Under the pieces are notes generated by a model that was given only the letters and a program-made list of their open reading frames with translations, made no database searches and was not told the DNA's origin. The position numbers were made by a program, and so were the translations under genes. From an uncultured Brevinematales bacterium (lineage in GTDB: Bacteria; Spirochaetota; Brevinematia; Brevinematales; CAYRWR01), in NCBI GenBank assembly GCA_964428015.1, contig CAYRWR010000007.1:21546-85545 (forward strand): 64,000 nucleotides of DNA. The letters are read 5' to 3'. Positions 1 to 43,942 of this stretch are shown here, in pieces. Position 1 is the first letter of the stretch, and every line of letters begins with the position of its first letter.

Positions 1-3000
1 AGGTCTTCCAGCGTAGGCTCATTATCTGAAACAGGTTCAACATTTTCATTTAAAGTTTCGGTTTCCGGTTCAAAGGGGGATTCTGAAATTTCAGGCTGTA
101 CCATTTCTTCCATATTTATATCAATAGTAGATTCCAGGTTATTGAGTTCATCCATATCCAGAGAAATGTTATCTTCTTCGCCTTCTTCCCCTACTTCAGG
201 GACTGAATTAATGAGATCATCTATATCCAGGTCAAGTTCCAGAGAACTATTATCTCCTGATGGAATTGCATCTTCCTCTATTTCCACATCCAGATTGGAG
301 AGCTCATCCATACTGAGAGCTATTTCTTCGTCATCATTCATCTCACTGCCTATCTCAGGCACCTGAGCTACCAGACTATCCACATCCAGGATATCACTTT
401 CTTCTAAATCTGATATGGCGCTGACATCCAGTTCATTTACTTCACTGTCTGTAGCCTCATTTTCCAGCAATCCTTTTTCACTATCCAAATCCATGATCTC
501 AGGGATTTCAGCCAGGTCAGGGATCTCCATATCAATATCCTGACTGGTCATATCCCCGCTCTCTATCTCAGTGGGAGGCAGGTCAATTTCAATCTGATTT
601 GTTTCACCTTCTTCCTGTACAGCAGCGATATCTTCCAGATCAGGAATATCCAAAGAAACTATTGAGTCGCCGTCCACTTGTTGCTGATCAGGGGAAACCA
701 AATGCTCATCATCACCTACTTCAATATCCAGATTAGAGATCTCATCCAGGCTGGATAGATCGATATCTTCGGGCAGATCAATATCAGTGATAACGGTCTC
801 CTGAGGTTGGTCGATCAGGGTCTCCTGCATCAGGTCTTCACCGCTGAGTATTTCTTCCGCGGGACCTTCCCCCAGAATAGACAGGTCGTCATCAATCTCT
901 ACGACCCCGTCATCTTCATTGTCTTCAAAGCCTTCTATTTTGTCTTTTTCCAGTGTCTCAAATACTTCCGTATCCAGATTATCCAGATCCAGGCTGCTCA
1001 GGTCCAGTTCGTCAGAGTCGGAGGCAGCTTGCAGATTATTATCTATCCCCAAATCATCCAGATCCAAGTCAGAGGTAATCGCTTCCGTATTCCCTTCCAG
1101 AGAGAATTCAGAGGCATCAGCCGGCTGTTCTTCCAGGTCCATTCCTGACAAATCCAGAGCCGGGGTGTCTGTACTTTCCAGTTCTTCCGTTAACTCTGAA
1201 AGCCCCAAATCACCGCTGTCCGTACCTATCCCATCCAGATCCAGGCCTTCCAGGTCCAGATCCATGGCAGGCATCTCTTCCGCAGTGTTTTCTTCCTGTA
1301 TCTCAGGTAGACCCAGGTCTTGGCTGGGAACGACTTCCTCACTGCCAAAATCCATGTCCGGAGTCTGTCCCAGGCTATCCAGATCCAGTTCTCCTTCTTC
1401 AAAGGAGATATCCGACATGGCCTGTTCATCTTCATCAGAGACTTCAGTTTCTTCTTCCGTACCCATAGACTGGAAGGCATCTTCATCGATACCCTGCAGG
1501 ATGCGGTCCTGTTCCGCGAATAGTTCCGTCTCCAGCTGATTATTGGTAGGCACGCGGGTTTCCGTGGAATAGCCCAGGTCAATAGCCATGGCTTCTTCTC
1601 CCCCGCCGTCGGGCAGCTGCATTTCTTCATAAGTCGATGCTGCCACTTCCAGTTCATCTTTTTCAGTGGGCGGCTCCCACATTGCTTCCCCTTCGGTGGT
1701 TTGGCCTACTTCTTCCCAGTCCATGCCCGGTTCTTCCGGCAGAGTCTCTTCTTCCAATGAGTCAAATACGGGTCTGGTTTCTTTAGTAGTCTTGACTCCC
1801 AGTTTCTCTTCAAAAACTTTGTCAAAACGCTCTACCAGGCTATTGTCATCAAAGGTATTGTCAAAATCAGTTTCTGCAGCGGCGGAGCTATCCAGTTCCT
1901 TATCCCATATATCCTGGCTGTCTTTAAAATCTTCCTGGGATTGAAAAGCTGTGCTTTCCAGAGGCTGATCCAGGTCGATATCTTCCAGGCTGAATTCCCC
2001 GGCGTCAAAATCATCTGAACCAACGGCGCCGGCAATGTCATCTTCATCAGAAGAAATCATACCGGGCATAGTGGTGAAATCCGTATCAGAATTCATGATC
2101 ATATTTTCAATACCCTGATTGCCGCTACCTTCGGCATAGGTCTTGCCCCGTTCTATATCCCTGACCAGCCCTCTGATCTCATCTGAAGGAGGTATGTCAT
2201 AAGCTGCCCGTGAAGGTGACTCATATCCCCGGTCATTGGATACGGGCAGAGGCGCGAATTCATCATCCATATCCACACCGGTATCGTAATTCTGCTGTAC
2301 ATAGTTGTTAACCTGATCGGAATTATGATAAGCGATGAGGGCATAGACTACCAGGCCCAGCAGGGCCATATTCACCAGGATCATTAGAATAGCTATCCAG
2401 GGACGGTAGGGTTTGGAGTTGATATCATAGGCGGCCACTACCCCGTTTATGCGCAGACGGATCAGGAAGTCTTCCTTGCTCTTCTGCCCCGAAGGGAATT
2501 CATCAATACGGCTGAGTGTAGCATTGATCTGTTCGGGACTGTATTTCTTGGTAGTTAAAAAGATACGGTTATTTTTAGTGCCGGCCAGCTGGATATTCTG
2601 CCCTCCGAAGGGCTCCAGGATGCGCTGAGTATCAAAATAGGTCAGCACATAACCGATAATCTCGTCGCTTTCCGAATCACGGGGAAATTTCTCACAGATG
2701 ATAAAATTAGTTTTGTTGGACTGGAAAAGGACGTGAGGCCGCCGGGGATGAATGGCAAAATGCTCCTTGAGCACAGTGAGATAATCCTGGCTGAGCTTCT
2801 TGGTGTCGGCTTCCCTGTCCAGAGTGGACATGAGGATTTTACCGTCCTTATTCACTACCTGTATCTTACGGCCGTATTTCATGCCCATCAGCTTTTTCTG
2901 AAAATCCGCCACGAAGCGCCGAGTGTCCTCACCCAAGGTATAAGACACAAACAGTTTCTGAGTCAGCCCGTCGGCACCGATAGCATGGGCTTCCGTGGAT

Positions 3001-3170
3001 GCTGTACCGATGCTTTTTTCCAGAGCGTCCTGAACGTCCTGGTTAAGATGCTGCAGATAGCTCTGGTACTGCTTGCCGAAGAACCATTTACGGGTCTTGG
3101 CAGCGTAGACGATGATCACCAGTGAGCCCAAAGCCAGTACGAGAGCGAAGTACAGCAGGATCTTTTTCAA
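1..3170 (-). CDS. Membrane-anchored protein with a periplasmic domain and a very long acidic low-complexity tail. It is partial: the 3' end runs off the window.
   Basis: The minus-strand frame is open from the window edge up to a TTG at 3170..3168, preceded by GAGGAAA (rc of 3173-3179). It is absent from the ORF track because there is no in-window stop. Hand translation gives LKKILLYFALVLALGSLVIIVYAA (TM1), about 230 aa of soluble domain, then PWIAILMILVNMALLGLVVYALIAY (TM2, about 2330-2402). About 770 aa follow, dominated by D/E/L/S/I with recurring LDLD, DIDL and EEL motifs. The Ser-rich plus-strand ORFs here are antisense shadows. Confidence 0.75.
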   Translation of the reverse strand, partial: MKKILLYFALVLALGSLVIIVYAAKTRKWFFGKQYQSYLQHLNQDVQDALEKSIGTASTEAHAIGADGLTQKLFVSYTLGEDTRRFVADFQKKLMGMKYGRKIQVVNKDGKILMSTLDREADTKKLSQDYLTVLKEHFAIHPRRPHVLFQSNKTNFIICEKFPRDSESDEIIGYVLTYFDTQRILEPFGGQNIQLAGTKNNRIFLTTKKYSPEQINATLSRIDEFPSGQKSKEDFLIRLRINGVVAAYDINSKPYRPWIAILMILVNMALLGLVVYALIAYHNSDQVNNYVQQNYDTGVDMDDEFAPLPVSNDRGYESPSRAAYDIPPSDEIRGLVRDIERGKTYAEGSGNQGIENMIMNSDTDFTTMPGMISSDEDDIAGAVGSDDFDAGEFSLEDIDLDQPLESTAFQSQEDFKDSQDIWDKELDSSAAAETDFDNTFDDNSLVERFDKVFEEKLGVKTTKETRPVFDSLEEETLPEEPGMDWEEVGQTTEGEAMWEPPTEKDELEVAASTYEEMQLPDGGGEEAMAIDLGYSTETRVPTNNQLETELFAEQDRILQGIDEDAFQSMGTEEETEVSDEDEQAMSDISFEEGELDLDSLGQTPDMDFGSEEVVPSQDLGLPEIQEENTAEEMPAMDLDLEGLDLDGIGTDSGDLGLSELTEELESTDTPALDLSGMDLEEQPADASEFSLEGNTEAITSDLDLDDLGIDNNLQAASDSDELDLSSLDLDNLDTEVFETLEKDKIEGFEDNEDDGVVEIDDDLSILGEGPAEEILSGEDLMQETLIDQPQETVITDIDLPEDIDLSSLDEISNLDIEVGDDEHLVSPDQQQVDGDSIVSLDIPDLEDIAAVQEEGETNQIEIDLPPTEIESGDMTSQDIDMEIPDLAEIPEIMDLDSEKGLLENEATDSEVNELDVSAISDLEESDILDVDSLVAQVPEIGSEMNDDEEIALSMDELSNLDVEIEEDAIPSGDNSSLELDLDIDDLINSVPEVGEEGEEDNISLDMDELNNLESTIDINMEEMVQPEISESPFEPETETLNENVEPVSDNEPTLED

Positions 3171-3460
3171 GCTTTCCTCTTTAATAAGTATCAGAGCACA
3201 ATTACTCTGTTTGATATTTTCGGCAAACCAAGTGAGAATCCTTAGATATTATACATAATATTTACAAAAAAATACAGGGCTTTTTAATTAGGCTATAAAA
3301 CAGGCTGCACAGTTCCGTAGAACAGGTGTTTCAGGGGAAATTAAGACTGCTAAAACGAAGAGGAGGTAGTCCCCCTACCCGGCCCTGGGATATTGAGACT
3401 GTGAATGATTAGAGATGGTTCCTTTTCCCCAGGCGACTTCCGTCGCGGCAGGGCTGTCTA

Positions 3461-3615
3461 GCCTGGTGCCCCTGGGGCGGTTATCCCTTCTCACATGAGT
3501 GTCTGGAGCACAGATTCAGTTTATAGGGAGCAGTAGGCATGATACCGACTACGTCCCGGTGCCGTTGTGTTAACGTTCCGCGGGGGTACAGAAGCATCGC
3601 TGTGGTAGCGACATC
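3461..3615 (+). repeat. Copy A of a dispersed GC-rich element (candidate structured ncRNA or non-autonomous mobile element)
   Basis: It shares conserved blocks with 36725-36850 (+) and 43645-43792 (-). The blocks are ...cccctgg(g/t)ggcggttat(c/g)CCTTCTCAC... and cggtgccgt..g..TAACG..CCGCGgg..gcatcg.ct.tg.ggt. It is intergenic and GC-rich within AT-richer spacer. Confidence 0.5.
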
Positions 3616-3811
3616 ACCTGTTTTTACAGAGTCTATTGTTGAGAAAACACCATAGTATTAATTAGGGAGTTAAGATGGAGATTCCTGAGACTTTATCAGT
3701 AGTGATGAATGCCTTTCAATTTTATGTGAATTACATTAAAATAAACTATTCCTTTATGAATTCTTGATTAATCAGTACAAAAAGGTGAAATAAACAGCAG
3801 GAGTGATACGG

Positions 3812-4666: not shown

Positions 4667-7021
4667 TTATTTAGCGCCTTTACTCTTCAGGTATTGAACA
4701 ATCTGTTCAAAATTAGGAGTCATTTTCTGCTGATACCAGTACTGCGCTAAAAGCAAGGGGGTCGTTCCGGAAGGCAGCTTCGCATTGATATCCGCCCCGG
4801 CTTCTACCAGAGACCTAATGATACTTGGGTATCCACCTTCTATCGCTATCAGCAATACAGTCCATCCATCTTGTTTTACAGCATTGACATCTGCACCTTT
4901 TTTTATCAAATAGGAGACTATATCGGGATATCCATTATAGGCAGCATTCATTAGAGGAGTCTGGCCATTAAATGCCGTTAAACGAGCCTCGAGGTTCGCT
5001 CCTTTTTCTACCAGCATTTTTGTGATATCAAGGTTTCCTGAAATAGTAGCTTCGGTCAATCCGGTGACGCCTCCTTCTGCTACTGTCAAAGGATCAGCGC
5101 CATTTTTAAGCAGAAGTTCTACTACTTTTGCCTGGTCTGATCTTACGGCAAAAATTATAGCATCTTCTCCGCTATTATTCTTAGAATTAACATTAGCTCC
5201 TTTTTTTATTAGATATTGAATCGCCTCTAAATCTCCAAAGGCTGCAGCGTGCATCAGCAGGGTAGTTTCCTTCTTCATCTGGTTAGCCGAGGCACCATTA
5301 TCAAGGAGAAATTTCATAACCTGTTTATTCAGCACAGGAGTACCGGTTTGTTTGTTCTTTTGGTTCTTAGGTAAGACAAAATAAAATGTCCGTCCACCGA
5401 ACCCCATATACATGATATTTCCACCCAGAGTCCCGGACAATAAAGCTGTTTCATTGTTGTCGGATATAGCATTAATATCGATCCCTTTCTGGATCAGGTA
5501 TTTGAGGAAAGTAGTATTCCCATTTTCCGCAGCTAAAATCATAGCAGTTTCACCATTTTTACTCTTTACCTTGGGGTCAAGACCCAGGCCTTCCAGGTAT
5601 TGAAATAACTCCTGGTTACCGCTTAAAGCAGCACTAAGTATCGCATTCCTGCCATTGGAGTCAGATTCATTCAAGTCAGTCCCTTTTTCCAGGAGAAATT
5701 TTACCAATTCTAGATTTCCTGTCTCAGCTGCATCAGGAAGTATGGGAACCTTATTTTTGACTACACTGAGCTTAAGATCATACAGATATTTTACTAGATC
5801 CAAATTCCCACTCTGTACTGCTGAATTCATTACCACCCGGCCTTCTTTACTGGAGACTTTTATATCAGCTTTATTCTCGATGAGTAACTTAACGAGATCT
5901 AGATTTCCGCTCCCCGCTGCATAAAATAAAGGAGTGGAACCCCAGTTATCTTTTGCATTTACAGCCGATTTCTTGGCAATAAGTAAACGGCACATTTCAA
6001 TATTGCCATTTTTAGCGGCAAACATCAAGGCAGTCTGTTTATTTTTATTTACAGCCTGTACATTGGCTTTATTATCAAGAAAGAGCTGAACCAGTTCGAG
6101 GTTTCCATTCTCTGCTGCCACGACCAGATTGGGCTTGGGGTCTGTGGTGTCTTTTATATAGTTTACATTTGCTTTGTTGGATACCAAAATTTTTGCAAGT
6201 TCGGTATCATTTTTTTGAACCATCACAGGTAGATATCCAGTAGCATATCCGGCGCTGAGTGTAGCGCCTTTAGAAAACAGATAGCGTGCCAGATTATAAT
6301 CAGGATTGTTTTTTTTGGCATCCTTTTGCAGGGCATAGACTACCAGACTTTTGTCGTCGTAGGGCATTTTGATATTGATATCAGATCCCGCTTCTACCAG
6401 TACTTTAACTGCTGCCAGGGGTTCTTCAGCCCAAAAAATAGCATAAAACAAAGGAGTCCTTCCATTTATCACAGCCTTGGGATCACAGCCTTTTTCAATG
6501 AGGTATTTTACGATATCCGCTTTACCAGATGCTGCAGCCACAATGATAGTTGTAAAACCAAAATTATTCACTGCGTTGAGATCTGCTCCTTTTTCTACCA
6601 GAAGTTTTACCACTTCTAGATTACACCCCCACTGTATAGCAAACTGCAATGTAGTATATTTGTACCGATCTACGGCATTAACGTTAGCACCTTTTTCAAT
6701 TAGCAGTTTGGCTACCGGGACATTATTTTCAATGGCTGCACTCATCAGCGGTGTAATGCCTTTTTCATTAGTAGCATTCACATTAGCACCCTTGGAAATA
6801 AGGTAATTAATAATATCAACCGCATTTTTTTGCACGGCTACTGACAAAACAGGCCAGCCTTGTATACTGGTTTTGCAGTTGACATCCCCACCCTTGTCAA
6901 CCGCAGCCTGTACAGCTTTCAGATTTTTTTCAAAAGTTGCCTTCATCAAATCGTCATGAACAGTGGCATTCATAATGTTAAATACAACAAAGAACAATAG
7001 GACAGTAAGTATACTCCTCAT
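4667..7021 (-). CDS. Secreted ankyrin-repeat protein (about 20 or more ANK repeats)
   Basis: 784-aa ORF with an N-terminal signal-like peptide (MRSILTVLLFFVVFNIMNA). Throughout it shows the ~33-aa periodic ANK signature (G.TPLM.AA..GN...VK.LI.KGA.VNA.D). Confidence 0.9.
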   Translation of the reverse strand: MRSILTVLLFFVVFNIMNATVHDDLMKATFEKNLKAVQAAVDKGGDVNCKTSIQGWPVLSVAVQKNAVDIINYLISKGANVNATNEKGITPLMSAAIENNVPVAKLLIEKGANVNAVDRYKYTTLQFAIQWGCNLEVVKLLVEKGADLNAVNNFGFTTIIVAAASGKADIVKYLIEKGCDPKAVINGRTPLFYAIFWAEEPLAAVKVLVEAGSDINIKMPYDDKSLVVYALQKDAKKNNPDYNLARYLFSKGATLSAGYATGYLPVMVQKNDTELAKILVSNKANVNYIKDTTDPKPNLVVAAENGNLELVQLFLDNKANVQAVNKNKQTALMFAAKNGNIEMCRLLIAKKSAVNAKDNWGSTPLFYAAGSGNLDLVKLLIENKADIKVSSKEGRVVMNSAVQSGNLDLVKYLYDLKLSVVKNKVPILPDAAETGNLELVKFLLEKGTDLNESDSNGRNAILSAALSGNQELFQYLEGLGLDPKVKSKNGETAMILAAENGNTTFLKYLIQKGIDINAISDNNETALLSGTLGGNIMYMGFGGRTFYFVLPKNQKNKQTGTPVLNKQVMKFLLDNGASANQMKKETTLLMHAAAFGDLEAIQYLIKKGANVNSKNNSGEDAIIFAVRSDQAKVVELLLKNGADPLTVAEGGVTGLTEATISGNLDITKMLVEKGANLEARLTAFNGQTPLMNAAYNGYPDIVSYLIKKGADVNAVKQDGWTVLLIAIEGGYPSIIRSLVEAGADINAKLPSGTTPLLLAQYWYQQKMTPNFEQIVQYLKSKGAK

Positions 7022-34390: not shown

Positions 34391-35206
34391 TCATGCTCTC
34401 AAATAATGCATCCAAGAATCACTGATACCGATGCCGAAATACAACACCAGTACAAACAGAAAATAAGGTCCGGTCAGTACCAGCAGGCAGTAGAGTAGCG
34501 CCACTGACAGCATCACCGGCCATCTTTTCTTTCTGAGCCAGGTTATCAGCACCTGGAATCCCAGCACCGAGTAAACCAGGGCCAGGAACAAGGTCAGGTT
34601 GCTGGCCACCAGGCCCAGCTTATCCCATAGTCCCATCTGGTAGACCACAAAACCTGCCAGCAGACAGGCCAGGGCGGGATATACCCAGCGGTGGTCAAAA
34701 TCCCTGCTCCAGCGGTACCATCCGGTCACCGGATAGCTCTCCTGGCTGATTGCGGAACTGATGCCTGTCCAAAGGACAAAGACCAGTATTCCGGGCAGGT
34801 ATTCCAGGTAGACCCAGAAACTATATACCGCGTCTATGATCCGGGTCTTTTTGAGGCCGGGAAAGATGGCGGATATGGCATCCAGTATCCTGGTATAGCC
34901 CTGTTTAAGGGGCTCCGCTCCTACATTAAAGCCCAGGCTCAGCACCAGGACCATAACCAGAGCGGTTATTAACAATCCATGAAAAGGGGCTTCCTTTTCA
35001 GCGGACATAAACACCCTGTATCCCAGGAATGTAACCCCCAGGGCCAGGGTGGCGGCCCACACCCCGCTGCGCGTGAACAGCGCTATCAGGGTCAGGACCA
35101 GGAGCAGGAAGGGCACTCTGAAAACCAGGGCCATAGACCTGCTCACTATAAAATGCGTTCCCGTCAGGACCAGGGAGACGCACAGCAGAAAAAGGGTCTC
35201 AGCCAC
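34391..35206 (-). CDS. Polytopic membrane protein, probably DUF2232/YybS-like
   Basis: It has 7-8 hydrophobic helices. Its position between rpsR and rplI mirrors yybS in Firmicutes (rpsR...yybS-yybT-rplI-dnaC). The family assignment comes from synteny and topology only. Confidence 0.6.
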   Translation of the reverse strand: MAETLFLLCVSLVLTGTHFIVSRSMALVFRVPFLLLVLTLIALFTRSGVWAATLALGVTFLGYRVFMSAEKEAPFHGLLITALVMVLVLSLGFNVGAEPLKQGYTRILDAISAIFPGLKKTRIIDAVYSFWVYLEYLPGILVFVLWTGISSAISQESYPVTGWYRWSRDFDHRWVYPALACLLAGFVVYQMGLWDKLGLVASNLTLFLALVYSVLGFQVLITWLRKKRWPVMLSVALLYCLLVLTGPYFLFVLVLYFGIGISDSWMHYLRA

Positions 35207-35212
35207 CCTTCC

Positions 35213-35656
35213 CTATCTGTCGACGTAGGGCAACAGGGCCAGGATACGGGCTTTCTTGATCTCCTGGGACAGCATTCTCTGGTACTTAGCGGCAGTACCG
35301 GTGATGCGGCGGGGAACAATCTTGCCTGAGGGCATCACGTACTTGCGCAGCAGGTCGACATTTTTATAATTGATCATCTTGGGGTCGGTCTGACCGGTGC
35401 TGAAACGGCATACTTTTTTGGTATAAAAGAATTTTCTCTTTCCGCCGCCGCGTGAATCGCCGCGGTCACCACGGTCTCCGCGATCGCCGCCGCGGTCGCC
35501 GCCGCGTGAGTCGCCACGGGGCTTGCTGAAACGTCTTTCTTTGGGAGCGTCTTCAGCGCCTTCTTCTTTTTCAGCTACAGCTTCATCAGCGTGTACTACT
35601 ACATCTTCTACTAAAGCTTCTACGAGTTCGTCGTCTTTCTTGATATCATCTGACAT
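35213..35656 (-). CDS. rpsR: 30S ribosomal protein S18 with a ~72-aa N-terminal extension (acidic segment plus RGD/RGG repeats)
   Basis: The C-terminal 72 aa is canonical S18 (KVCRF...[12 protein letters not shown]...[10 protein letters not shown]...KYQR). The N-terminus has an acidic stretch, then [27 protein letters not shown] (nt 35441-35518). Confidence 0.9.
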
Positions 35657-36471: not shown

Positions 36472-36724
36472 GGTACCTCCTTATGGTCTTGTCGTCCGTA
36501 TATACGGAAAGGATAGAATATTTTAAAGAATGACAAGGAATTAGTCAAGAATGTCGACAGTCCCTGGTCTTCTCTCTGCTGCAGGGAAAAAGGACTATGG
36601 GGATAGGCACACCGAAAAAGGGCAAATTTACCGCATAGGTTTAGGGAGAGCCTCTTGCCTGTACCACGTCAGCACTAGGGCAGAGGCGGCTTCCGCCGCG
36701 GGGAATATCTCCACAATAGCGGAG

Positions 36725-36850
36725 GGTCTCCTCATCCCTTCTCACCCGGGATAGGGGATCACTGTGTCCCCTGGTACTGAGTGGAGTGGCGCACCCCCTA
36801 GCCCTGGGCGGTCTGCGGCATCTTAACGCTCCGCGAATGTAGATGCTTTC
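36725..36850 (+). repeat. Copy B of the dispersed GC-rich element
   Basis: It contains tcatcCCTTCTCAC (36732-36745) and ccctgggcggtctgcggcatctTAACGctCCGCG (36801-36834), homologous to copies A and C. Its end overlaps the vapC stop codon by 2 nt. Confidence 0.45.
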
Positions 36851-37253
36851 AGCTCACCCAGTTTTCCATTTTCAGATCAGGGATCCTGGAAAAATGCTTT
36901 TGATTGTTAGTCACCAGGGTCAGATTGTGACTGAGGGCAGTGGATGCGATTAACAGGTCCAAATCATCCTGAGGCAGGCCTTGTTTCGATACATCAGCCT
37001 TGAGAAGAGCAAAACTCTCCATAACAGACCGGTCAACTTCCAGAATGGGATAGATATCAGCCAGCCGCATGACAGTAGCCAAATTCTTCTGAAAATGGCG
37101 GGATTTATGGGCACCATACAGCAGTTCGCCATAGGTCACCACGGAAATGAATTTAGGGTCATTTTTCCTGTCCAGAAAATTTTGATTCACGCCATTTTCA
37201 TTTTTAAGACTGTACATGATAATATCAGTATCAATCAAATAAAGCATTGTCAT
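36849..37253 (-). CDS. vapC: PIN-domain toxin VapC
   Basis: The track ORF extends to 37325. In-frame ATGs at 37253 and 37247 give M(TM)LYLIDTDI..., with the PIN acidic residues (IDTD, YGEL, DLLIAST, TNN.KHF). It overlaps the antitoxin stop (37231) by about 20 nt. Confidence 0.8.
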   Translation of the reverse strand: MTMLYLIDTDIIMYSLKNENGVNQNFLDRKNDPKFISVVTYGELLYGAHKSRHFQKNLATVMRLADIYPILEVDRSVMESFALLKADVSKQGLPQDDLDLLIASTALSHNLTLVTNNQKHFSRIPDLKMENWVS

Positions 37254-37509
37254 CCCCAAAGCGTTGACTGTTGGCCCTGTCTTTTTTGATATCTGAGAGA
37301 ATCTCCGCGCTACTGCGGTCATCAATCCAGCTGCCCGCCAGTTCCAGAAATTTTTCAGTAGGATTGATACCGATCCTGTTTTTGCCGGATATATAGTTTT
37401 CTAATATTTGAATCACTTCCTGACTGAGAGATCTTTTTTCTTTTTTTACCAGGGCCTGGAGTTCAGAATACAAGCTGTCTTCTATATCTCGTACCTGGAG
37501 AATAGCCAT
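37231..37509 (-). CDS. vapB: Ribbon-helix-helix antitoxin (VapB/FitA-like)
   Basis: The ATG at 37509 is preceded by AGGAGG. MAILQVRDIEDSLYSELQALVKKEKRSLSQEVIQILE matches the RHH beta-alpha-alpha pattern. It lies immediately upstream of and overlaps vapC. Confidence 0.7.
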   Translation of the reverse strand: MAILQVRDIEDSLYSELQALVKKEKRSLSQEVIQILENYISGKNRIGINPTEKFLELAGSWIDDRSSAEILSDIKKDRANSQRFGDDNALFD

Positions 37510-37638
37510 ATTTTCCTCCTTTCTTTTTAATATATCGCACCATGCATGAAATGTCATTCATTTCGCATGAACATTATATAATTTTCCGTTATATATTTTT
37601 ACAAAACAACATTGAAAAATTGAAATAAAAAAAATCAC

Positions 37639-37667
37639 TTGACATTGTTTATGTGCGCACATATAAT
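37639..37667 (+). promoter_or_regulatory. Near-consensus sigma70 promoter with an embedded palindromic operator for the second TA module
   Basis: The -35 is TTGACA (37639-37644), the spacer is 17 nt, and the -10 is TATAAT (37662-37667). A perfect 12-bp palindrome, ATGTGCGCACAT (37651-37662), lies in the spacer. An RBS AGAGGAGG follows, then the ATG at 37691. Confidence 0.65.
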
Positions 37668-37690
37668 GTGTAATAGAGGAGGTTTTTTAT

Positions 37691-37915
37691 ATGAAAAACA
37701 TAACACTATCCATAGATGATAAACTTTTATCCGCGGGAAGAGAATACGCGGCCAGACACCATATTTCTTTCAATGTTCTGGTGAGAAAACTGATAGAACA
37801 GACTGTTCTTAAAAAATCTGATCATTGGCTGGAAGACACCTTTCTACTGATGGATAAGGCTGAGGTAAAAGATAAAAAAGCAAAATGGACACGGGAGGAA
37901 TTATACCGTGTCTAA
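37691..37915 (+). CDS. Antitoxin (RHH-like) of the second PIN toxin-antitoxin pair
   Basis: 74 aa. The N-terminal ITLSIDDKLLSAGREYAARHHISFNVLVRKLIE matches the RHH pattern. It overlaps the downstream PIN gene by 8 nt. Confidence 0.65.
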   Translation: MKNITLSIDDKLLSAGREYAARHHISFNVLVRKLIEQTVLKKSDHWLEDTFLLMDKAEVKDKKAKWTREELYRV

Positions 37916-38339
37916 AATATTTCTTGATACCAACTTTCTGGTTTACAGTATCGATACCCGGGACAAAGAGAAGCATCAAAAAGCACGTTTGATTCTGGCA
38001 AAGGCTGTGGAACTGCATCTGCCGGTGATTTCTACCCAGGTCATTCAGGAGTTTTACGTGGTTTGTACTCAAAAATTAAAAATTGACCCTTTGATAATCA
38101 AAAACATTATACACAACTTCCAGAACCTGGAAATCGTGAATAATGATTTAAGCCTGGTGGAACAGGCCATCGATATCAGTATACTTTCTCAGCTGTCATT
38201 TTGGGATTCCTTAATCATTGCGGCAGCCGAAAAAGCCAATTGCGACCTGGTTCTTTCTGAAGACTTGAATTCAGGCCAGAATTACAGGGGTATAATAGTA
38301 TTGAATCCTTTTAGTGTGGAAAATTTCGATAATCTCTGA
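37908..38339 (+). CDS. vapC: PIN-domain toxin (VapC family), second module
   Basis: It has a GTG start that overlaps the antitoxin. The PIN acidic residues are present (FLDTN, QEF, FWDSLI, SED). Confidence 0.82.
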   Translation: MSKIFLDTNFLVYSIDTRDKEKHQKARLILAKAVELHLPVISTQVIQEFYVVCTQKLKIDPLIIKNIIHNFQNLEIVNNDLSLVEQAIDISILSQLSFWDSLIIAAAEKANCDLVLSEDLNSGQNYRGIIVLNPFSVENFDNL

Positions 38340-38344
38340 TTTTC

Positions 38345-40369
38345 TCAGTACTCATCCCCGCTGAACTGGGCATGGTTCAGTACCTTGTCTTCGATTTCCT
38401 GTTTTTCTTCAGGGGAGGCATCGGGGGCGGTTTTGGAGCCGCTGCGCCGGAAGCGTTCCAGCCAGTCCCTACCCAGCAAAGTAAACCCGCGGGCCGCCGC
38501 GGCGGTACTGAAGGCGGTGGTAGTCTCGGACTTGGGGCCTGTGCCCGGCCCGACACCCACATAGAACCCCGCCGCCAGCAGGGCTCCCCTCACCTGGGTG
38601 GAGGTGGAATAAGTCAATAGCCTGGTCCCGGCGGGGGCGCACAGACGGAACAGCCTGGAAAAAGAAGCATAATTCCACAAGGGTCCATTGGTATTCAGTG
38701 AAAACATGTCATAATAGATACAGCGCGGCGCGGGAGCCTGGCTGCACCGCTCCTCAAAATCCCCTTCCAGTAAGACCCATTCGATCCGTCCATCCGGAGA
38801 TACCCATTGGCCCTGGCGGAGCAGGCTACCCGGCCCGGCATGCCTGACATGAGGAAAGTGCGCGGTATGTTTACAGGCCAGCCGCAGGGAGTCCAGGTCA
38901 TTCTCAAAACTGAATATACGTATGCGTAGTGTGGAATCGGCCTCCAGCAGTTTTTCCGCCTCCATGATGGTCACCATGGCATTGGTACCCGCGCCCAGAC
39001 CCACATCCCAGATCACAAAATCTGCCTGGTCCTGCCCCTGTATAGCTTGCCTCAGTCCGCTTTGTTCAAAATACAGCGTCCGGGACTCCACCATGGGGTC
39101 GGAGACAGAGTGCATGGTCTCCCCGGAGGAGCGCTGACGGATGCTGTTGAAGCCGGGTCCCTCTACTATCTCATAATCCCCCAGGGTGTAGGCTTTTTTG
39201 CGTACAGGCCTGCTTGGGGGTAATTTGGGATGCTCCCCGTCGGGGGCAGACAGCAGCTCCCGGTGGGTGTTATAAAAGGACAGGAAGCTATTGTCCAGGA
39301 TATGCCGGCGCATATTGTCCATAAGCTGTTTATAATAGGCCAGGTTGTGCCGTCCGATGAGGCTGTACCCCAGGAATTCTTTGGTCTTGACCAGGTGGTG
39401 CAGATAGGCCCGGGAGTAGCTGCGGCAGGTGGGGCAGGCGCAGTTTTCGTCGAGGGGGCGGTCGGACAGTTTGTAGACTGAGCGCCTCAGCTCTACCCGT
39501 CCCTGTGAGGTATAGGCCAGCCCCTGCTGGGACACATAGGTGGGGATGATGCAGTCAAACATGTCCATCCCCCGGTGCACCGCCTCCAGCAGGTCCAGGG
39601 GCGTACCCACTCCCATGAGATAACGGGGCCGGTCGGGGGGGAGCAGTGCCGCGGTGAGAGCGGTGATGTCCTTGCGCTCCTCTTCCTCCTCCCCTACCGC
39701 CAGTCCCCCGATGGCATAGCCGTCAAAGGGCAGAGAGGTGATCTGAGCGGCGCTCCGCTTACGCAGGGCCGGAAAGCAGCCCCCCTGTACGATTCCGAAC
39801 AGGGACTGGGGAGAGTCCTGCCGGGCGGCCAGGCTCCGCTCCGCCCAACGCGCGGTGAGCTCCACCGCCTCCCGGCAGACATCGAGGGGTGAGCGGGAGG
39901 ACGCGCACTGGTCCAGGGCCATCATGATATCACTGCCTATGGCCTTCTGGGTATCGATACTGAGCTCGGGGCTGAGCAGGTAGCCGCGTCCGTCCACGTA
40001 GGACCGGAAAGAGGCTCCTTCTTCCGTGATTTTAAATGACTGTGACATGGAAAATATCTGGAATCCCCCGCTGTCGGTCAGGACCGAACGGGGCCAGTTC
40101 ATAAATTTGTGGATACCGCCCAGTGTCCGGAACACCTCTGTCCCGGGCCGGAGCAGGAGATGGTAGGTATTGGCCAGCAGTACCGGATAGCCCATGTCTT
40201 CCACGGCAGGGGTGGGCTGATTGCGCAGAGCGGCAAAGGTAGCCACAGGCATGAACAGAGGGGTCAGGACCTCATTGTGCAGAGTTTTAAAGCGGCAGGC
40301 CCGTGCCGCCGTACCGTCCGCCCTGGCCTCCACCTCAAAGCCCAGCCTGGAATCAGAAACATCCTTCAT
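38345..40369 (-). CDS. tgt: Queuine/preQ1 tRNA-ribosyltransferase (Tgt) fused to a C-terminal MnmC-type (Methyltransf_30/DUF752-like) SAM methyltransferase domain
   Basis: The N-terminal ~380 aa has LTDSGGFQ, DGYAIGGLAVGE, LMGVGTPLDLLEAV and the zinc site CACPTC...H. The C-terminal ~280 aa has ETMHS...VESRTLYF, VIWDVGLGAGTN, YYDMFSLNTNGPLW and LLTYSTSTQVRGALLAAGF, resembling the MnmC methyltransferase domain. It is a single uninterrupted 674-aa ORF and is visibly GC-rich (about 60-70% in sampled lines). Confidence 0.85.
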   Translation of the reverse strand: MKDVSDSRLGFEVEARADGTAARACRFKTLHNEVLTPLFMPVATFAALRNQPTPAVEDMGYPVLLANTYHLLLRPGTEVFRTLGGIHKFMNWPRSVLTDSGGFQIFSMSQSFKITEEGASFRSYVDGRGYLLSPELSIDTQKAIGSDIMMALDQCASSRSPLDVCREAVELTARWAERSLAARQDSPQSLFGIVQGGCFPALRKRSAAQITSLPFDGYAIGGLAVGEEEEERKDITALTAALLPPDRPRYLMGVGTPLDLLEAVHRGMDMFDCIIPTYVSQQGLAYTSQGRVELRRSVYKLSDRPLDENCACPTCRSYSRAYLHHLVKTKEFLGYSLIGRHNLAYYKQLMDNMRRHILDNSFLSFYNTHRELLSAPDGEHPKLPPSRPVRKKAYTLGDYEIVEGPGFNSIRQRSSGETMHSVSDPMVESRTLYFEQSGLRQAIQGQDQADFVIWDVGLGAGTNAMVTIMEAEKLLEADSTLRIRIFSFENDLDSLRLACKHTAHFPHVRHAGPGSLLRQGQWVSPDGRIEWVLLEGDFEERCSQAPAPRCIYYDMFSLNTNGPLWNYASFSRLFRLCAPAGTRLLTYSTSTQVRGALLAAGFYVGVGPGTGPKSETTTAFSTAAAARGFTLLGRDWLERFRRSGSKTAPDASPEEKQEIEDKVLNHAQFSGDEY

Positions 40370-40624
40370 AATCAGCAGCCTCTCGCGGGATAAGTATTTT
40401 TTAACATAAATAAGTCATCATTAATATTACCATCGAAATCTACTTCACTGCACCTACTTTATTTCCTTTTTTTCTCTTGGCCTTTATAGTAATATATAGG
40501 TCCAGAATATGAATTTATTACATCTTTTGAATCATTTTGATTTTGGTGTACTTGAGATTTATATGTGAAAAGTGAGATTCCTGTCTTATAAAAACAAATT
40601 TAAATAGTACTTTAATATTTATTT

Positions 40625-41659
40625 TCATTTTATATCTCCTAACGAATTAGGAATATTCTCATAATCATAAAACCGTTCTAATTCAGCACCTGTATTAATA
40701 TCCCTTAAATAAATTCTCAAATCATTTCCTTGAAATCCAACCCACACCGCAAAATTGTTCGAATTTTTGTATGAGAGAGTTTTACTTAATTCTTTTTTTA
40801 AATCTAATATTTCGTATCTTTCATTGATTTTATCATTATATATATATAATTTTCCATCATGACTAAAAGAATTTTGTTGGGGTATCGAACTAAAATGATT
40901 TTTTTTATCTAAAATGATATTAGTTTTATTATTTATAACAAGCAATCTAGTTTCTGTTTCTGGTAAATTAAGAACTAATTCTACATAATTTCCATTTTCT
41001 GAAATATTACTATATTCAACTTGTCCAAATGTTATATATACCCATTTTTTTCTAAAACTTAAATCGTAGACATTAACTTGAGTCATCGGAAAGGTATCGG
41101 ATAAGTCTACTTTATTACTTTGATCATAGATAAAGAACATTTGAATTTCCAAAATACTTTTTCCATCTTTAGAAGTAAGTAAACTTTTTGATATTATTTC
41201 AGAAATATCGTTTTGTTCGTCGGGAACAATATTATTATTAAGACAAATTTTTTTAAATATTTGATCATTTTTTTGTTTTAGAATGTTTGTCACTAAGGTG
41301 TTATTTGGCACCCTTAAAATGATAGTAGAGTTAGAAACAATAATTAATTGAGAATAACCTTGCATTTTGAAATTATCATAATTCATGATAGATAGGTTTA
41401 TAGCCCTATTTTCAAAAGCATCACCAATCCATTTCTCTATAATTGAATTATAGAATTCTTTTTTTATCCTAATAAAATTATGTATTTTTATTTCATTTTT
41501 AAAATACAATATTGTTTCATTTCTATTCGACAAATTAAATTTCGGCTCTATTTCACTAGATTGTGTATTTTTTTCCTCTGGCTTCACTTGTCCGCATGAG
41601 GCCAGGAGGACCAGGATGGTTACAATGGTGGTGGTTTTGGTGGACAGGGTGGTTTTCAT
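40625..41659 (-). CDS. Hypothetical lipoprotein with an extremely AT-rich mature part
   Basis: The lipobox is LLASC. There is no recognisable domain. The first ~80 nt (signal peptide) are about 54% GC, and the remaining ~950 nt are about 17-25% GC in sampled lines. Confidence 0.7.
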   Translation of the reverse strand: MKTTLSTKTTTIVTILVLLASCGQVKPEEKNTQSSEIEPKFNLSNRNETILYFKNEIKIHNFIRIKKEFYNSIIEKWIGDAFENRAINLSIMNYDNFKMQGYSQLIIVSNSTIILRVPNNTLVTNILKQKNDQIFKKICLNNNIVPDEQNDISEIISKSLLTSKDGKSILEIQMFFIYDQSNKVDLSDTFPMTQVNVYDLSFRKKWVYITFGQVEYSNISENGNYVELVLNLPETETRLLVINNKTNIILDKKNHFSSIPQQNSFSHDGKLYIYNDKINERYEILDLKKELSKTLSYKNSNNFAVWVGFQGNDLRIYLRDINTGAELERFYDYENIPNSLGDIK

Positions 41660-41731
41660 GTATGTACTCCGTTCTACCCCTCGATGCGATCCTCTGTGTG
41701 GTCCACTCGGGGGCTGTGTTTTTTTATAGCG

Positions 41732-41760
41732 AGAGTCTTAAGTGAGACTCTGTTTTTTTT
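41732..41760 (+). terminator. Orphan plus-strand intrinsic terminator
   Basis: A 7-bp stem pairs agagtct (41732-41738) with agactct (41745-41751) around a 6-nt loop, followed by g + T8 (41753-41760). No plus-strand gene lies upstream. Confidence 0.5.
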
Positions 41761-41792
41761 ATTGTAGCGGCGTGTTTGCCGTACCGTGGGGT

Positions 41793-41841
41793 CTCGGTAC
41801 AATTTTCCGCGCGAGCGCGGAAAATCACTCGACCTCCAATC
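41793..41841 (-). repeat. Hairpin repeat copy 1 (inverted relative to copies 2 and 3)
   Basis: The reverse complement reads GATTGGAGgtCGAGTGATTTTccgcgctcgcgcggAAAATTGTACCGAG. Confidence 0.6.
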
Positions 41842-41968
41842 GGGTCGGTGGGACACGAGGGCTAAACAGCCTTTTCTCTTTTTTCTGTTTGTCTTACCTC
41901 ACCCTGTGATTAATTAACATTGGCAAATATCTAAACTGTCTCCTATAAATATCTTATCCAACCTTAGC

Positions 41969-42037
41969 GATTGGACTTCGAGCGGTGTGCTGAGACTGCC
42001 GAAGTATGATTTTCGACGTAGTAGAAAATCGTACCGA
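41969..42037 (+). repeat. Hairpin repeat copy 2 (with a ~20-nt insertion)
   Basis: The sequence is GATTGGActtCGAGcggtgtgctgagactgccgaagtaTGATTTTcgacgtagtaGAAAATCGTACCGA. Confidence 0.5.
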
Positions 42038-42106
42038 AATGTCCGCTCTATTCCTACCAACAGAAGCTCTAGCTCCGTCTCCTCCAAGTCCCGAGTCTAT
42101 CTAAAA

Positions 42107-42154
42107 GATTGGAGTCCGAGTGATTTTTCGATGTAGTCGAAAAATTGTACCGAG
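42107..42154 (+). repeat. Hairpin repeat copy 3
   Basis: The sequence is GATTGGAGtcCGAGTGATTTTtcgatgtagtcgaAAAATTGTACCGAG. The stem sequence differs from copy 1 but pairing is preserved. Confidence 0.6.
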
Positions 42155-42188
42155 GACCCGTTCAACCCTACCCCCCCTCCCTCTATAC

Positions 42189-43520
42189 CTACTGCCTCTT
42201 CTTCACGATCATCAGCACCACGGCGGCTGTGGCTACAGCCAGGTTGGGGAACCACTCCATGAGGACGGGCAGGGAGCCTTTGGAGATCAGGGTCTCCACC
42301 CCTACCTTGACCCCGTAGTAGGTCACCATGATCAGAAAGCTGATGCCCAGGCCTTCGTTGCGGCCGCTGCGGGCATTGAACATGCCCAGGAACAGGCTCA
42401 GAAAGGCGAACAGAAAGGCCGAGACCGGGGCCGTGAATTTCTCGTGGTACTTCTGAATATATTTGGTGGGGATGGACTGTTTGATATTAATCACCTGTTT
42501 ATCCACTTCCCGGAGCTGATTCAGTACATTGGTATACTGCGCGGCGTTGGACGGCACAGAGGCTTTGTCTGCCTTTTTTAATTTAGCTTTCTCAATCTGG
42601 AGGCGGGACTGGAGTTGATCGCGCAGGGTGTACTGCTGTTTGAGCTTGGTCATGGTGGTGCCGGTGAGCCGGGCGATCTCGGCCCGGAGCTCGGCCTCAT
42701 TCATGGTGTCGGGGGTCTTGCGGTAGTAGTCCTCGGGCAGGTTGACATAGATATTGAGGGCCAGGTAGTTAAAGGAGGAAATAAAGAAATGCTCCTCCTC
42801 CCGGCCGGACTGGTCTTTGGCTTCCAGCACTTCGGTGAGAGTGCCGTTCTGGAATTTCATGATGTAGTGTTCCGCGTTCTCGGGATTGGAGATGAGGCGG
42901 GCTTTTTTAGCCTTGATGATCTTTCGGCCCCCGGTATCCACCACGTAGACATTGCGCAGGACTTCGTAGCCCTCTTCGTTGACCAGTTTTTCAAAGGATA
43001 TCTTGTAGATGCCCATGGACAGGCTGGACTGCTCCTTGAGGGAGATAGCCGGCTTTTGGGCCAGGAGCTTGGCATTGAGGCGGATGAGATTGTAATTAGC
43101 GCGTACCTCCACTGTATCCTTGAAATAAAACGCGAAGAAGCTAATAAAGATACCGAACAGTATCCCCGGAAGTACTACCCGGGGCATGGAAATACCGCAG
43201 GACTTCATAGCGGTGAGTTCACTGTCCTGGGACAGCCGGGACATGGTCAGGAGATAGCCGGGCAGGACCGCGAATGGAATAGAGAAAGAAATAACCATAG
43301 GCAGCTGGTTGAGGAGGAGCAGCAGGACCTGGTTGAAGGGAAAATTGTACTCAAAGTACATCTTGGCCAGCCATACCAGCTGGTTGAGCATGACCAGAAA
43401 GGTAAAAAACAGCAGTCCGAACAGGTAGTTAGGCAGCAGATCCCGGTAAAAATAGCGGTCCAGCCGGGAAAACAAGACACGTTGGAAAAAGTTGTTTTTA
43501 ACAGATACCCGGGGGGCCAT
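42189..43520 (-). CDS. LptF/LptG (YjgP/YjgQ)-family permease
   Basis: The track ORF extends to 43631. The ATG at 43520 gives MAPRVSVKNNFFQRVLFSRLDRYFYRDLLPNY..., the typical family N-terminus. It has three N-terminal TM helices, a large periplasmic insert, and three C-terminal TM helices. Confidence 0.8.
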   Translation of the reverse strand: MAPRVSVKNNFFQRVLFSRLDRYFYRDLLPNYLFGLLFFTFLVMLNQLVWLAKMYFEYNFPFNQVLLLLLNQLPMVISFSIPFAVLPGYLLTMSRLSQDSELTAMKSCGISMPRVVLPGILFGIFISFFAFYFKDTVEVRANYNLIRLNAKLLAQKPAISLKEQSSLSMGIYKISFEKLVNEEGYEVLRNVYVVDTGGRKIIKAKKARLISNPENAEHYIMKFQNGTLTEVLEAKDQSGREEEHFFISSFNYLALNIYVNLPEDYYRKTPDTMNEAELRAEIARLTGTTMTKLKQQYTLRDQLQSRLQIEKAKLKKADKASVPSNAAQYTNVLNQLREVDKQVINIKQSIPTKYIQKYHEKFTAPVSAFLFAFLSLFLGMFNARSGRNEGLGISFLIMVTYYGVKVGVETLISKGSLPVLMEWFPNLAVATAAVVLMIVKKRQ

Positions 43521-43644
43521 AGTTACATCCTGTGATTTTGATTCTGGGGATATAGTATCATAATACACGTCAGTTATCAAAAAATAGGATTTTTTCGTAG
43601 GAATGATTGCATTTAATAACAGACAGGTCAAGGTATGCTATATC

Positions 43645-43792
43645 CTATCACCGCAGAGACGATGCCCGCGGCAGGCGTTAGGACCACGGCACCGCCCAGG
43701 GGTCGGCATATCGCCCCGACCGGGCTACCAGGAGACGGGGTATATCCAGTGACCGCGTGAGAAGGCATAACCGCCACCAGGGGACCCGGTCC
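43645..43792 (-). repeat. Copy C of the dispersed GC-rich element
   Basis: The reverse complement reads ggtcccctggtggcggttatgCCTTCTCACgcggtcactgg ... ccctgggcggtgccgtggtccTAACGcctgCCGCGggcatcgtctctgcggt. It lies between the dnaJ terminator and the lptF-like start. Confidence 0.5.
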
Positions 43793-43795
43793 CGG

Positions 43796-43824
43796 AAAAA
43801 AATCGGCCCTGACGAAGGGCCGAC
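43796..43824 (-). terminator. Intrinsic terminator of the grpE-dnaK-dnaJ operon
   Basis: On the minus strand the stem CGGCCCT, loop tcgtc and stem AGGGCCG are followed by a + T7. It lies about 120 nt downstream of the dnaJ stop. Confidence 0.7.
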
Positions 43825-43942
43825 TCTGCATAGAAAAAATGTTAGCTAAAAGAGATGACAGGCTGCTGTCAGCCCTCTCCTGGAATGCCGGGCCGCTGTC
43901 CCGGTACAGAACCGTGTAGGCCCTTTTTCCAGGGAAAAAAAC

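Follow-up and report, generated by a model that had tools for sequence, protein, structure and literature searches.

Three diverged copies of an unclassified GC-rich intergenic element, possibly an old interspersed repeat, in an uncultured Brevinematales spirochaete

The window, i.e., the whole 64-kb stretch of DNA analysed here, is chromosomal DNA (45% GC) of an uncultured spirochaete from the Brevinema group. In DnaJ, it shares 61% identity with a protein named “MAG: Brevinematales bacterium”, 53% with Brevinema andersonii, and 85% and 79% with the closest relatives. The housekeeping genes include grpE-dnaK-dnaJ, rpsF-ssb-rpsR-rplI-dnaB and dnaX-ybaB-recR as well as pyruvate:ferredoxin oxidoreductase, tgt and lptF, alongside a 784-aa ankyrin-repeat protein and two vapBC-type PIN modules; neither a tRNA nor any Rfam 15 family at gathering score was detected in the same 64 kb. 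Ankyrin repeats are a hint of a host-associated lifestyle, and the spirochaete itself is probably host-associated. Public short-read assemblies of runs SRR13617028-46 hold pieces 100% identical to the window, and the public contigs reached through the window proteins were short and again 100% identical, and so revealed no strain variation and no empty site. The motif CCWGG is over-represented in the window (345 sites vs. ~92 expected from base composition), which we rejected as a feature of the repeats described below since this enrichment is genome-wide.

Three intergenic segments of this DNA (copies A, B and C) are homologous and constitute a genuine, unclassified family. They are 182-195 nt long, GC-rich (57-66%) amid otherwise AT-rich spacers, and built in the same order from a 5' hairpin, GGCGGTTAT[C/G]CCTTCTCAC, a spacer of 76-78 nt and CGGT..TAACG..CCGCG, with the following features:

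Copy A
3431-3625, + strand: core, 195 nt, 57% GC; the HMM built from B and C spans 3431-3591
3431-3448, + strand: 5' hairpin P1, AGGCGAC-TTCC-GTCGCGG, 2 differences from copy B
3462-3494, + strand: block 1, CCTGGTGCCCCTGGGGCGGTTATCCCTTCTCAC, aligned to 43789-43757 of copy C
3557-3582, + strand: block 2, CGGTGCCGT-TGTGT-TAACG-TT-CCGCG
3558-3625, + strand: predicted long imperfect 3' hairpin, GGUG...CACC, then UGUUUUU
3614-3625, + strand: 3' end, TCACCTGTTTTT

Copy B
36684-36865, + strand: core, 182 nt, 60% GC; the HMM built from A and C spans 36688-36843
36684-36701, + strand: 5' hairpin P1, AGGCGGC-TTCC-GCCGCGG
36732-36745, + strand: remnant of block 1, TCATCCCTTCTCAC
36802-36835, + strand: block 2, CCCTGGGCGGT...TAACG-CT-CCGCG, aligned to 43701-43667 of copy C
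36804-36872, + strand: predicted 3' hairpin of ~20 bp, CUGGG...CCCAG, then UUUUCCAUUUU
36854-36865, + strand: 3' end, TCACCCAGTTTT

Copy C
43826-43645, - strand: core, 182 nt, 66% GC, limits approximate; the HMM built from A and B spans 43780-43645
43796-43823, - strand: 5' hairpin UCGGCCC-UUCGUCA-GGGCCGA, then U7, at the position of P1 and unlike it in sequence
43757-43789, - strand: block 1, CCGGGTCCCCTGGTGGCGGTTATGCCTTCTCAC
43667-43701, - strand: block 2, CCCTGGGCGGTGCCGT-GGTCC-TAACG-CCTG-CCGCG

Copy A lies close to two minus-strand genes, one for a protein of more than 1056 aa without family match (1-3170) and the other for the ankyrin protein (4667-7021), which consists almost entirely of repeats. 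The T-run of copy A is followed after 50 nt by a 30-codon ORF (3675-3767, + strand; MEIPETLSVVMNAFQFYVNYIKINYSFMNS) that has a good ribosome-binding site (AGGGAG), and then by a 235-aa ORF with weak resemblance to an esterase.

Copy B overlaps the end of a gene: the vapC (PIN) ORF at 36849-37325 (- strand) has its 3' end and stop within the last ~17 nt of the copy, so that the copy B 3' end encodes the stop of this VapC and the ~5 codons before it. Two VapC-like PIN-domain genes are adjacent here (36849-37557, - strand, and 37691-38339, + strand), each with a small ORF, its likely antitoxin, in front, and beyond them tgt (38345-40369, - strand) encodes a 674-aa tRNA-guanine transglycosylase with a SAM-methyltransferase domain (Methyltransf_30) fused to its C-terminus. 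A 67-codon ORF (36551-36754, + strand) runs across copy B and is annotated as a protein in one public assembly. On the other side, rpsF has a promoter (TTGACT-17-TAAAAT; 36472-36548, - strand) and a leader carrying the hairpin TTCTATCCTTTCCGTAnATACGGACGAC...AAGGAGG, and both are kept in relatives with S6 identities of 69-80% (L014 9920-10000; L016 1690-1770); the leader may serve S6/S18 autoregulation, and no significant Rfam match was found for it. Ribosomal protein S18 (35213-35656, - strand) is 147 aa long with its Pfam domain confined to residues 93-142, which indicates a long N-terminal extension, and a 271-aa ORF without family match (34391-35206, - strand) separates rpsR from rplI, an arrangement also present in relative L016.

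Copy C has the dnaJ stop (43943) on one side and the promoter and start of lptF (43520) on the other. It is also crossed by a 67-codon ORF (43628-43831, - strand) that was left uncalled by the gene caller used for the public assemblies. Downstream of lptF, the 529-nt spacer (41660-42188) is itself repeat-rich, with inverted arms of 54 nt (41789-41841 and 42107-42159; 80% complementary, ~265 nt apart), a direct repeat of 29 nt (42010-42037 and 42125-42153) and several perfect GC hairpins. Its content looks like a separate MITE-like element, without any Rfam match at E ≤ 1, and two public assemblies break in it or within 30 nt of its edge (41798, 42214).

The homology of the three copies is best seen when an HMM built from two of them is searched against the window (nhmmer): the third was in each case the best non-self match, with E-values of 6.2e-4 for copy C, 3.3e-5 for copy B and 3.9e-7 for copy A, as compared to at least 1.2 for the next-best match, and no fourth copy was found in the window. 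Each copy contains CCTTCTCAC once (3486-3494 and 36737-36745 on the + strand, 43757-43765 on the - strand), which makes three occurrences in all across the window against 0.47 expected from shuffles, and the 18-nt 5' hairpin common to A and B (AGGCGRCTTCCGYCGCGG) has two matches, where 0.03 are expected. The best local alignment of A and C, over block 1, scores 44 (shuffle maximum 26), and the A-B and B-C local alignments barely exceed the shuffle maxima. Only 67 of 214 columns are invariant in the three-way alignment, the longest invariant run being a 9-mer, and pairwise identity across the copies is just 52-56%, which indicates that the similarity is truly restricted to the blocks.

These blocks form a mosaic, with blocks 1 and 2 common to A and C, CCCTGGGCGGT and TAACG..CCGCG to B and C, and the 5' hairpin and the 3' end (TCACCYRGTTTT) to A and B. 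Over one stretch of 27 nt, A and C reach 92.6% identity (BLASTN), and this figure, set against the overall identity, suggests selection on the blocks, which would fit a functional RNA or a binding site equally well. Beyond the cores, the flanks have no significant similarity between copies. A dispersed three-copy family in unrelated gene contexts and both orientations, as proposed by the sequence-only reading, is thus borne out by the leave-one-out searches, and the strings quoted there are all found in place. That reading had also located the copies correctly and drawn them too short, the 5' hairpin and 3' end of A and B lying outside its limits. The segment between the blocks, described there as variable in length, is nearly constant, since CCTTCTCAC and TAACG are separated by 76, 78 and 76 nt in A, B and C, and the gap between cggtgccgt and TAACG is 5 nt instead of the 6-8 nt given before.

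Almost nothing is known of non-coding elements in the Brevinematales, and neither their repeats nor the source runs turned up in the literature searched. The element had no sequence similarity to anything searched. A strict motif scan (CGCGG-N2-6-CGTTA-N70-85-GTGAGAAGG-N-AT) returned 4 hits in 596 Gb of GTDB species-representative genomes, none of which scored with the element HMM, and 2 hits in JGI metagenomes, both in unrelated sequence and without an element HMM score; scans of viral contigs gave chance hits or nothing, and BLASTN against plasmids and phages only GC-rich chance matches of ~40 nt.

The nearest relatives (DnaJ 79-85% identical) are informative at the dnaJ, rpsF and lptF loci, 68 kb of which contained no copy by nhmmer where 3.2 would be expected at the density of the window. 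Their intergenic regions are 100-230 nt long with 24-41% GC and no GC-rich inserts, and the rpsF promoter and leader of a relative align with the window while the element upstream is missing. Downstream of dnaJ, relatives have yfbR or an aldehyde dehydrogenase gene after a spacer of 64-90 nt, vs. copy C and then lptF in the window. Likewise, lptF belongs to an lptFG operon in the sole relative readable at this locus, and in the window it stands alone between copy C and the repeat-rich 529-nt spacer. These changed neighbours indicate that the copies coincide with breaks in gene order. We infer that the copies were inserted, with the neighbouring genes differing too at every comparable site, for which reason no clean empty site is available.

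A 6.8-kb block with two vapBC, tgt, an ORF of 344 aa with no known function and lptF is enclosed by copies B (+) and C (-), which point towards each other (36684-43826). Only the window genome has this block between dnaJ and rpsF, relatives having other neighbours there, which suggests an old rearrangement bounded by repeats. We rejected B and C as the arms of a composite transposon because the cargo consists of housekeeping genes and the arms are just 54% identical; the layout is more naturally read as an old inversion or rearrangement. Public k-mer assemblies are continuous through copies B and C, from which near-identical copies elsewhere in the genome would seem to be absent. The family is old.

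No conserved RNA fold is detectable among the copies. Single-copy folds had no extra stability over dinucleotide shuffles (z = -0.03, -0.59 and -1.0), and RNAalifold gave a structure conservation index (SCI) of 0.21-0.28 and column-shuffle z-scores of -0.5 to -1.1 on both strands, with a covariation term of +0.22, three sequences giving these values low power. Positionally conserved helices were as frequent in shuffles (p = 0.1-0.7, three copies), and a long-range helix around block 1 (GCCUG/UAGGC in A, CUCCAC/GUGGAG in B, GACCGGGU/GCCCGGUC in C) that looked covarying by eye was dropped because equally matched helices are as common in shuffled GC-rich sequences. With fold z-scores, SCI and helix test all at shuffle level, the structured RNA envisaged before is unsupported. 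The structural positives are two and weak: the sole two differences between the P1 hairpins of A and B fall on both partners of one pair (A-U vs. G-C), and UUCUCAC is predicted to be unpaired with a probability of 0.39-0.76 in A and ~0.8-0.95 in B and C (sequence mean 0.37-0.39). The predicted structural context around the CCUUCUCAC motif varies between copies.

The best Rfam match of any copy at E ≤ 10 was rpfG (E = 0.15; 18 bits vs. a threshold of 75.9 bits), with nothing meaningful among the matches, in agreement with the earlier reading, which had left the element unclassified. Consensuses of the DnaA box, the sigma-54 promoter and the integron attC core site, compared by eye, matched poorly.

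Three hairpins nevertheless have the look of terminators. In copy C, the predicted 5' hairpin with its U7 would be a textbook intrinsic terminator behind dnaJ. The predicted 3' hairpin and U-run of copy B (-23.7 kcal/mol, z = -2.5, equalled by 4 of 200 shuffles) resemble a terminator, as do those of copy A on the strand of the element, where the fold is no better than shuffles (z = 0.17) and the likeness is thus purely anatomical. Copy C lacks the TCACC..GTTTT 3' end of A and B, and has no terminator at its 3' end. A sigma-70-like consensus promoter was found directly upstream of no copy, a search that leaves room for non-consensus promoters, and the nearest same-strand promoter matches of copy A lie more than 170 nt 5' of it.

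Hallmarks of mobile elements were sought as well. Inverted-repeat searches in each spacer found no terminal inverted repeats (TIRs) at homologous boundaries, only unrelated pairs of 10-19 nt in the non-homologous flanks, differing by copy. No direct repeats bracket the cores, whose ends are fixed to within a few nt and which are old enough for target-site duplications (TSDs) to have decayed. Among 53 window ORFs scanned with Pfam and NCBIfam, there was no transposase, integrase or reverse transcriptase, and no TnpA (Y1), TnpB or IscB. Apart from four, every one of the ~50 non-overlapping ORFs with 90 codons or more was covered; the exceptions were grpE, known from its annotation in an identical public contig, a partial ORF at the edge of the window and two overlapping alternatives.

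Overall, we tentatively prefer to read copies A, B and C as an old, diverged, lineage-specific non-coding interspersed repeat of ~180-195 nt, of the MITE, REP or mosaic-element kind. This is suggested by their dispersal in both orientations and unrelated contexts, their absence from the close relatives' loci examined, their position at synteny breaks, and the lack of a detectable conserved RNA structure, of a consensus promoter directly upstream and of a conserved reading frame. The single compensatory pair between the P1 hairpins of A and B points the same way, such changes being usual in REP-type hairpins, as do three copies per 64 kb, a density that is repeat-like and not sRNA-like. Against this reading stand the missing TIRs and transposase (among the 53 scanned ORFs), the lack of visible target duplications, and the internal position of the conserved blocks, unlike classical MITEs. 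Of the earlier suggestion of a mobile element, what we retain is a non-autonomous or relic interspersed repeat, favoured on circumstantial grounds only.

Under such a scenario, a short DNA module would have spread into intergenic DNA after this Brevinematales lineage and its closest sampled relatives had diverged. The module would comprise a 5' GC hairpin, GGCGGTTAT[C/G]CCTTCTCAC, a spacer of ~76 nt and a 3' part with CGGT..TAACG..CCGCG in a long imperfect hairpin followed by a T-run, and it might have been moved by an enzyme encoded elsewhere in the genome or spread by recombination. The surviving short blocks would then be the parts recognised by the mobilising machinery or by the host, in copies that are presumably no longer active and that would sit where gene order departs from that of relatives. 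Hairpin-plus-U terminators (P1 plus U7 behind dnaJ in C, the 3' hairpin plus U in A and B) would be a by-product, and copy B may in addition have come to supply the last codons and stop of vapC.

The main alternative, possible if doubtful, is that the copies are paralogous small-RNA genes, each giving an RNA of ~190 nt from the CCTTCTCAC strand that ends at the 3' hairpin and U-run. UUCUCAC, presented unpaired, could then, with equal reserve, serve as a seed or be bound by a protein, while TAACG..CCGCG would form a second conserved loop and the variable stems would be free to drift. Blocks held at fixed spacing (76, 78 and 76 nt) within sequence of 52-56% identity argue for purifying selection on short motifs, and are accompanied by terminator-like 3' hairpins with a U-run on the motif strand in A and B (z = -2.5 for B), a mostly unpaired UUCUCAC predicted in all three copies, the compensatory pair in P1 (A vs. 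B), and a GC content of 57-66% amid AT-rich spacers. However, small-RNA genes would be at odds with the missing sigma-70-like promoter directly upstream of each copy, the lack of a 3' terminator in copy C and of a detectable conserved structure, the unlike contexts of the CCUUCUCAC motif, the absence of the family from the relatives' loci and the motif scans, and the antisense course of copy B into the vapC end. Three copies are too few to separate small-RNA genes from an interspersed repeat, and the two are not mutually exclusive. In a broader form, the copies would be an undescribed functional-RNA family restricted to one Brevinematales lineage, either UUCUCAC-seed sRNAs or guide or scaffold RNAs of an unrecognised mobile-element enzyme, which we consider unlikely; the conserved blocks could in that case be binding sites of an enzyme encoded elsewhere.

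An IS200/IS605 origin, suggested earlier on the basis of the sequence, finds no positive support and appears improbable. The copies would here be ORF-less relics (PATEs) or the guide-RNA scaffold of a TnpB or IscB, with subterminal hairpins that a Y1 transposase from elsewhere in the genome would have to recognise in single-stranded DNA. The missing TIRs and the lack of visible target duplications are what such elements lead one to expect, hairpins lie close to both ends, and the 5' hairpin both carries a compensatory change and forms, in copy C, a predicted terminator like the IS200 left end, whose hairpin acts as a terminator. Yet Y1 transposase, TnpB and IscB are absent among the 53 window ORFs scanned, no copy matches an omega-RNA, HEARO or IS605-orfB RNA model of Rfam even at E ≤ 10, the 5' and 3' hairpins are unlike each other in sequence, and the left flanks (..TTTTCCCC, ..CTAGGGC and ..TCTATGC) have no common tetra- or pentanucleotide target.

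Decayed fragments of a small protein-coding gene are very improbable and, like chance similarity, effectively excluded. One forward frame of A and C reads PG..(A)V(I/M)PSH ... GAVVLT, with 3 nucleotide differences in GAVVLT that are all synonymous, and the 67-codon ORF of copy C is intact; against this, the 21 codons between the PSH and GAVVLT motifs have no amino-acid similarity, with 3 stops in A and a frameshift in B. No reading frame is conserved across the copies and no translation has a Pfam match, in line with the earlier observation that the frames differ in their stops. Searched against 1.84 billion representative proteins, the 67-aa ORF of copy C matched only giant, repetitive low-complexity proteins, and no ribosome-binding site precedes its start, which overlaps the predicted terminator hairpin behind dnaJ. 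The 67-codon ORFs of B and C, which have no protein homology to each other, are most probably spurious calls in non-coding, GC-rich sequence. Finally, a chance resemblance of GC-rich spacers, to which the overall identity of 52-56% and the A-B and B-C scores might point, is hardly conceivable given leave-one-out E-values of 6e-4 to 4e-7 with a clear gap to the background, collinear blocks at the same spacing in all three copies, and the counts of the P1 18-mer (2 vs. 0.03 expected) and the 9-mer (3 vs. 0.47), all within copies.

If the interspersed-repeat reading is true, the element would be one more lineage-specific interspersed repeat, useful for tracing genome rearrangement in an uncultured spirochaete that carries ankyrin-repeat proteins and toxin-antitoxin modules and has expanded spacers. 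It would also be a caution for annotators, as gene callers put spurious 67-codon ORFs on the repeat. Its importance would be greater if the blocks were recognition sites of an unknown mobilising enzyme or the seed of a multicopy sRNA family.

How does this element compare with known systems? The families for comparison are BIME/REP, ERIC, RIME, the pneumococcal BOX and RUP, the Correia elements of Neisseria and the RPE of Rickettsia. Like the element, they are short non-coding stretches (100-200 nt) with a higher GC content than the spacers around them. Bacterial interspersed repeats of this type stand in either orientation between genes and are lineage-specific and mosaic, their hairpins can terminate transcription, and they may overlap gene ends.

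Multicopy trans-acting sRNA families resemble the element in having a short motif (here predicted to be unpaired) within an otherwise variable sequence and a 3' hairpin plus U-run, here in two of three copies, but the element lacks a recognisable promoter or conserved fold, one copy lacks a terminator, and three copies per 64 kb would be unusually dense. IS200/IS605 PATEs and omega-RNA scaffolds are comparable in size (~150-200 nt), in their lack of TIRs, with no TSD visible around the element either, and in hairpins near the ends; the element differs from them in having no tnpA, tnpB or iscB among the window ORFs scanned, no match to the Rfam families of that type, dissimilar end hairpins and no conserved flanking target.

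MITEs share with it a short, non-coding sequence and several dispersed copies, but the element has no TIRs, and its conserved blocks are internal where those of classical MITEs are terminal; likewise, it differs from the MITE-type Correia and RUP in having neither TIRs nor visible target duplications. REP/BIME units are imperfect palindromes of 20-40 nt, often paired as REPINs, whereas the element is a unit of ~190 nt with collinear, non-palindromic blocks and not a simple palindrome. Its copies are also far more diverged than is typical of active interspersed-repeat families. As in bacterial interspersed repeats generally, however, the element is short, GC-rich, dispersed, lineage-specific and hairpin-bearing, overlaps a gene end, and is mosaic, with a different subset of blocks in each pair of copies.
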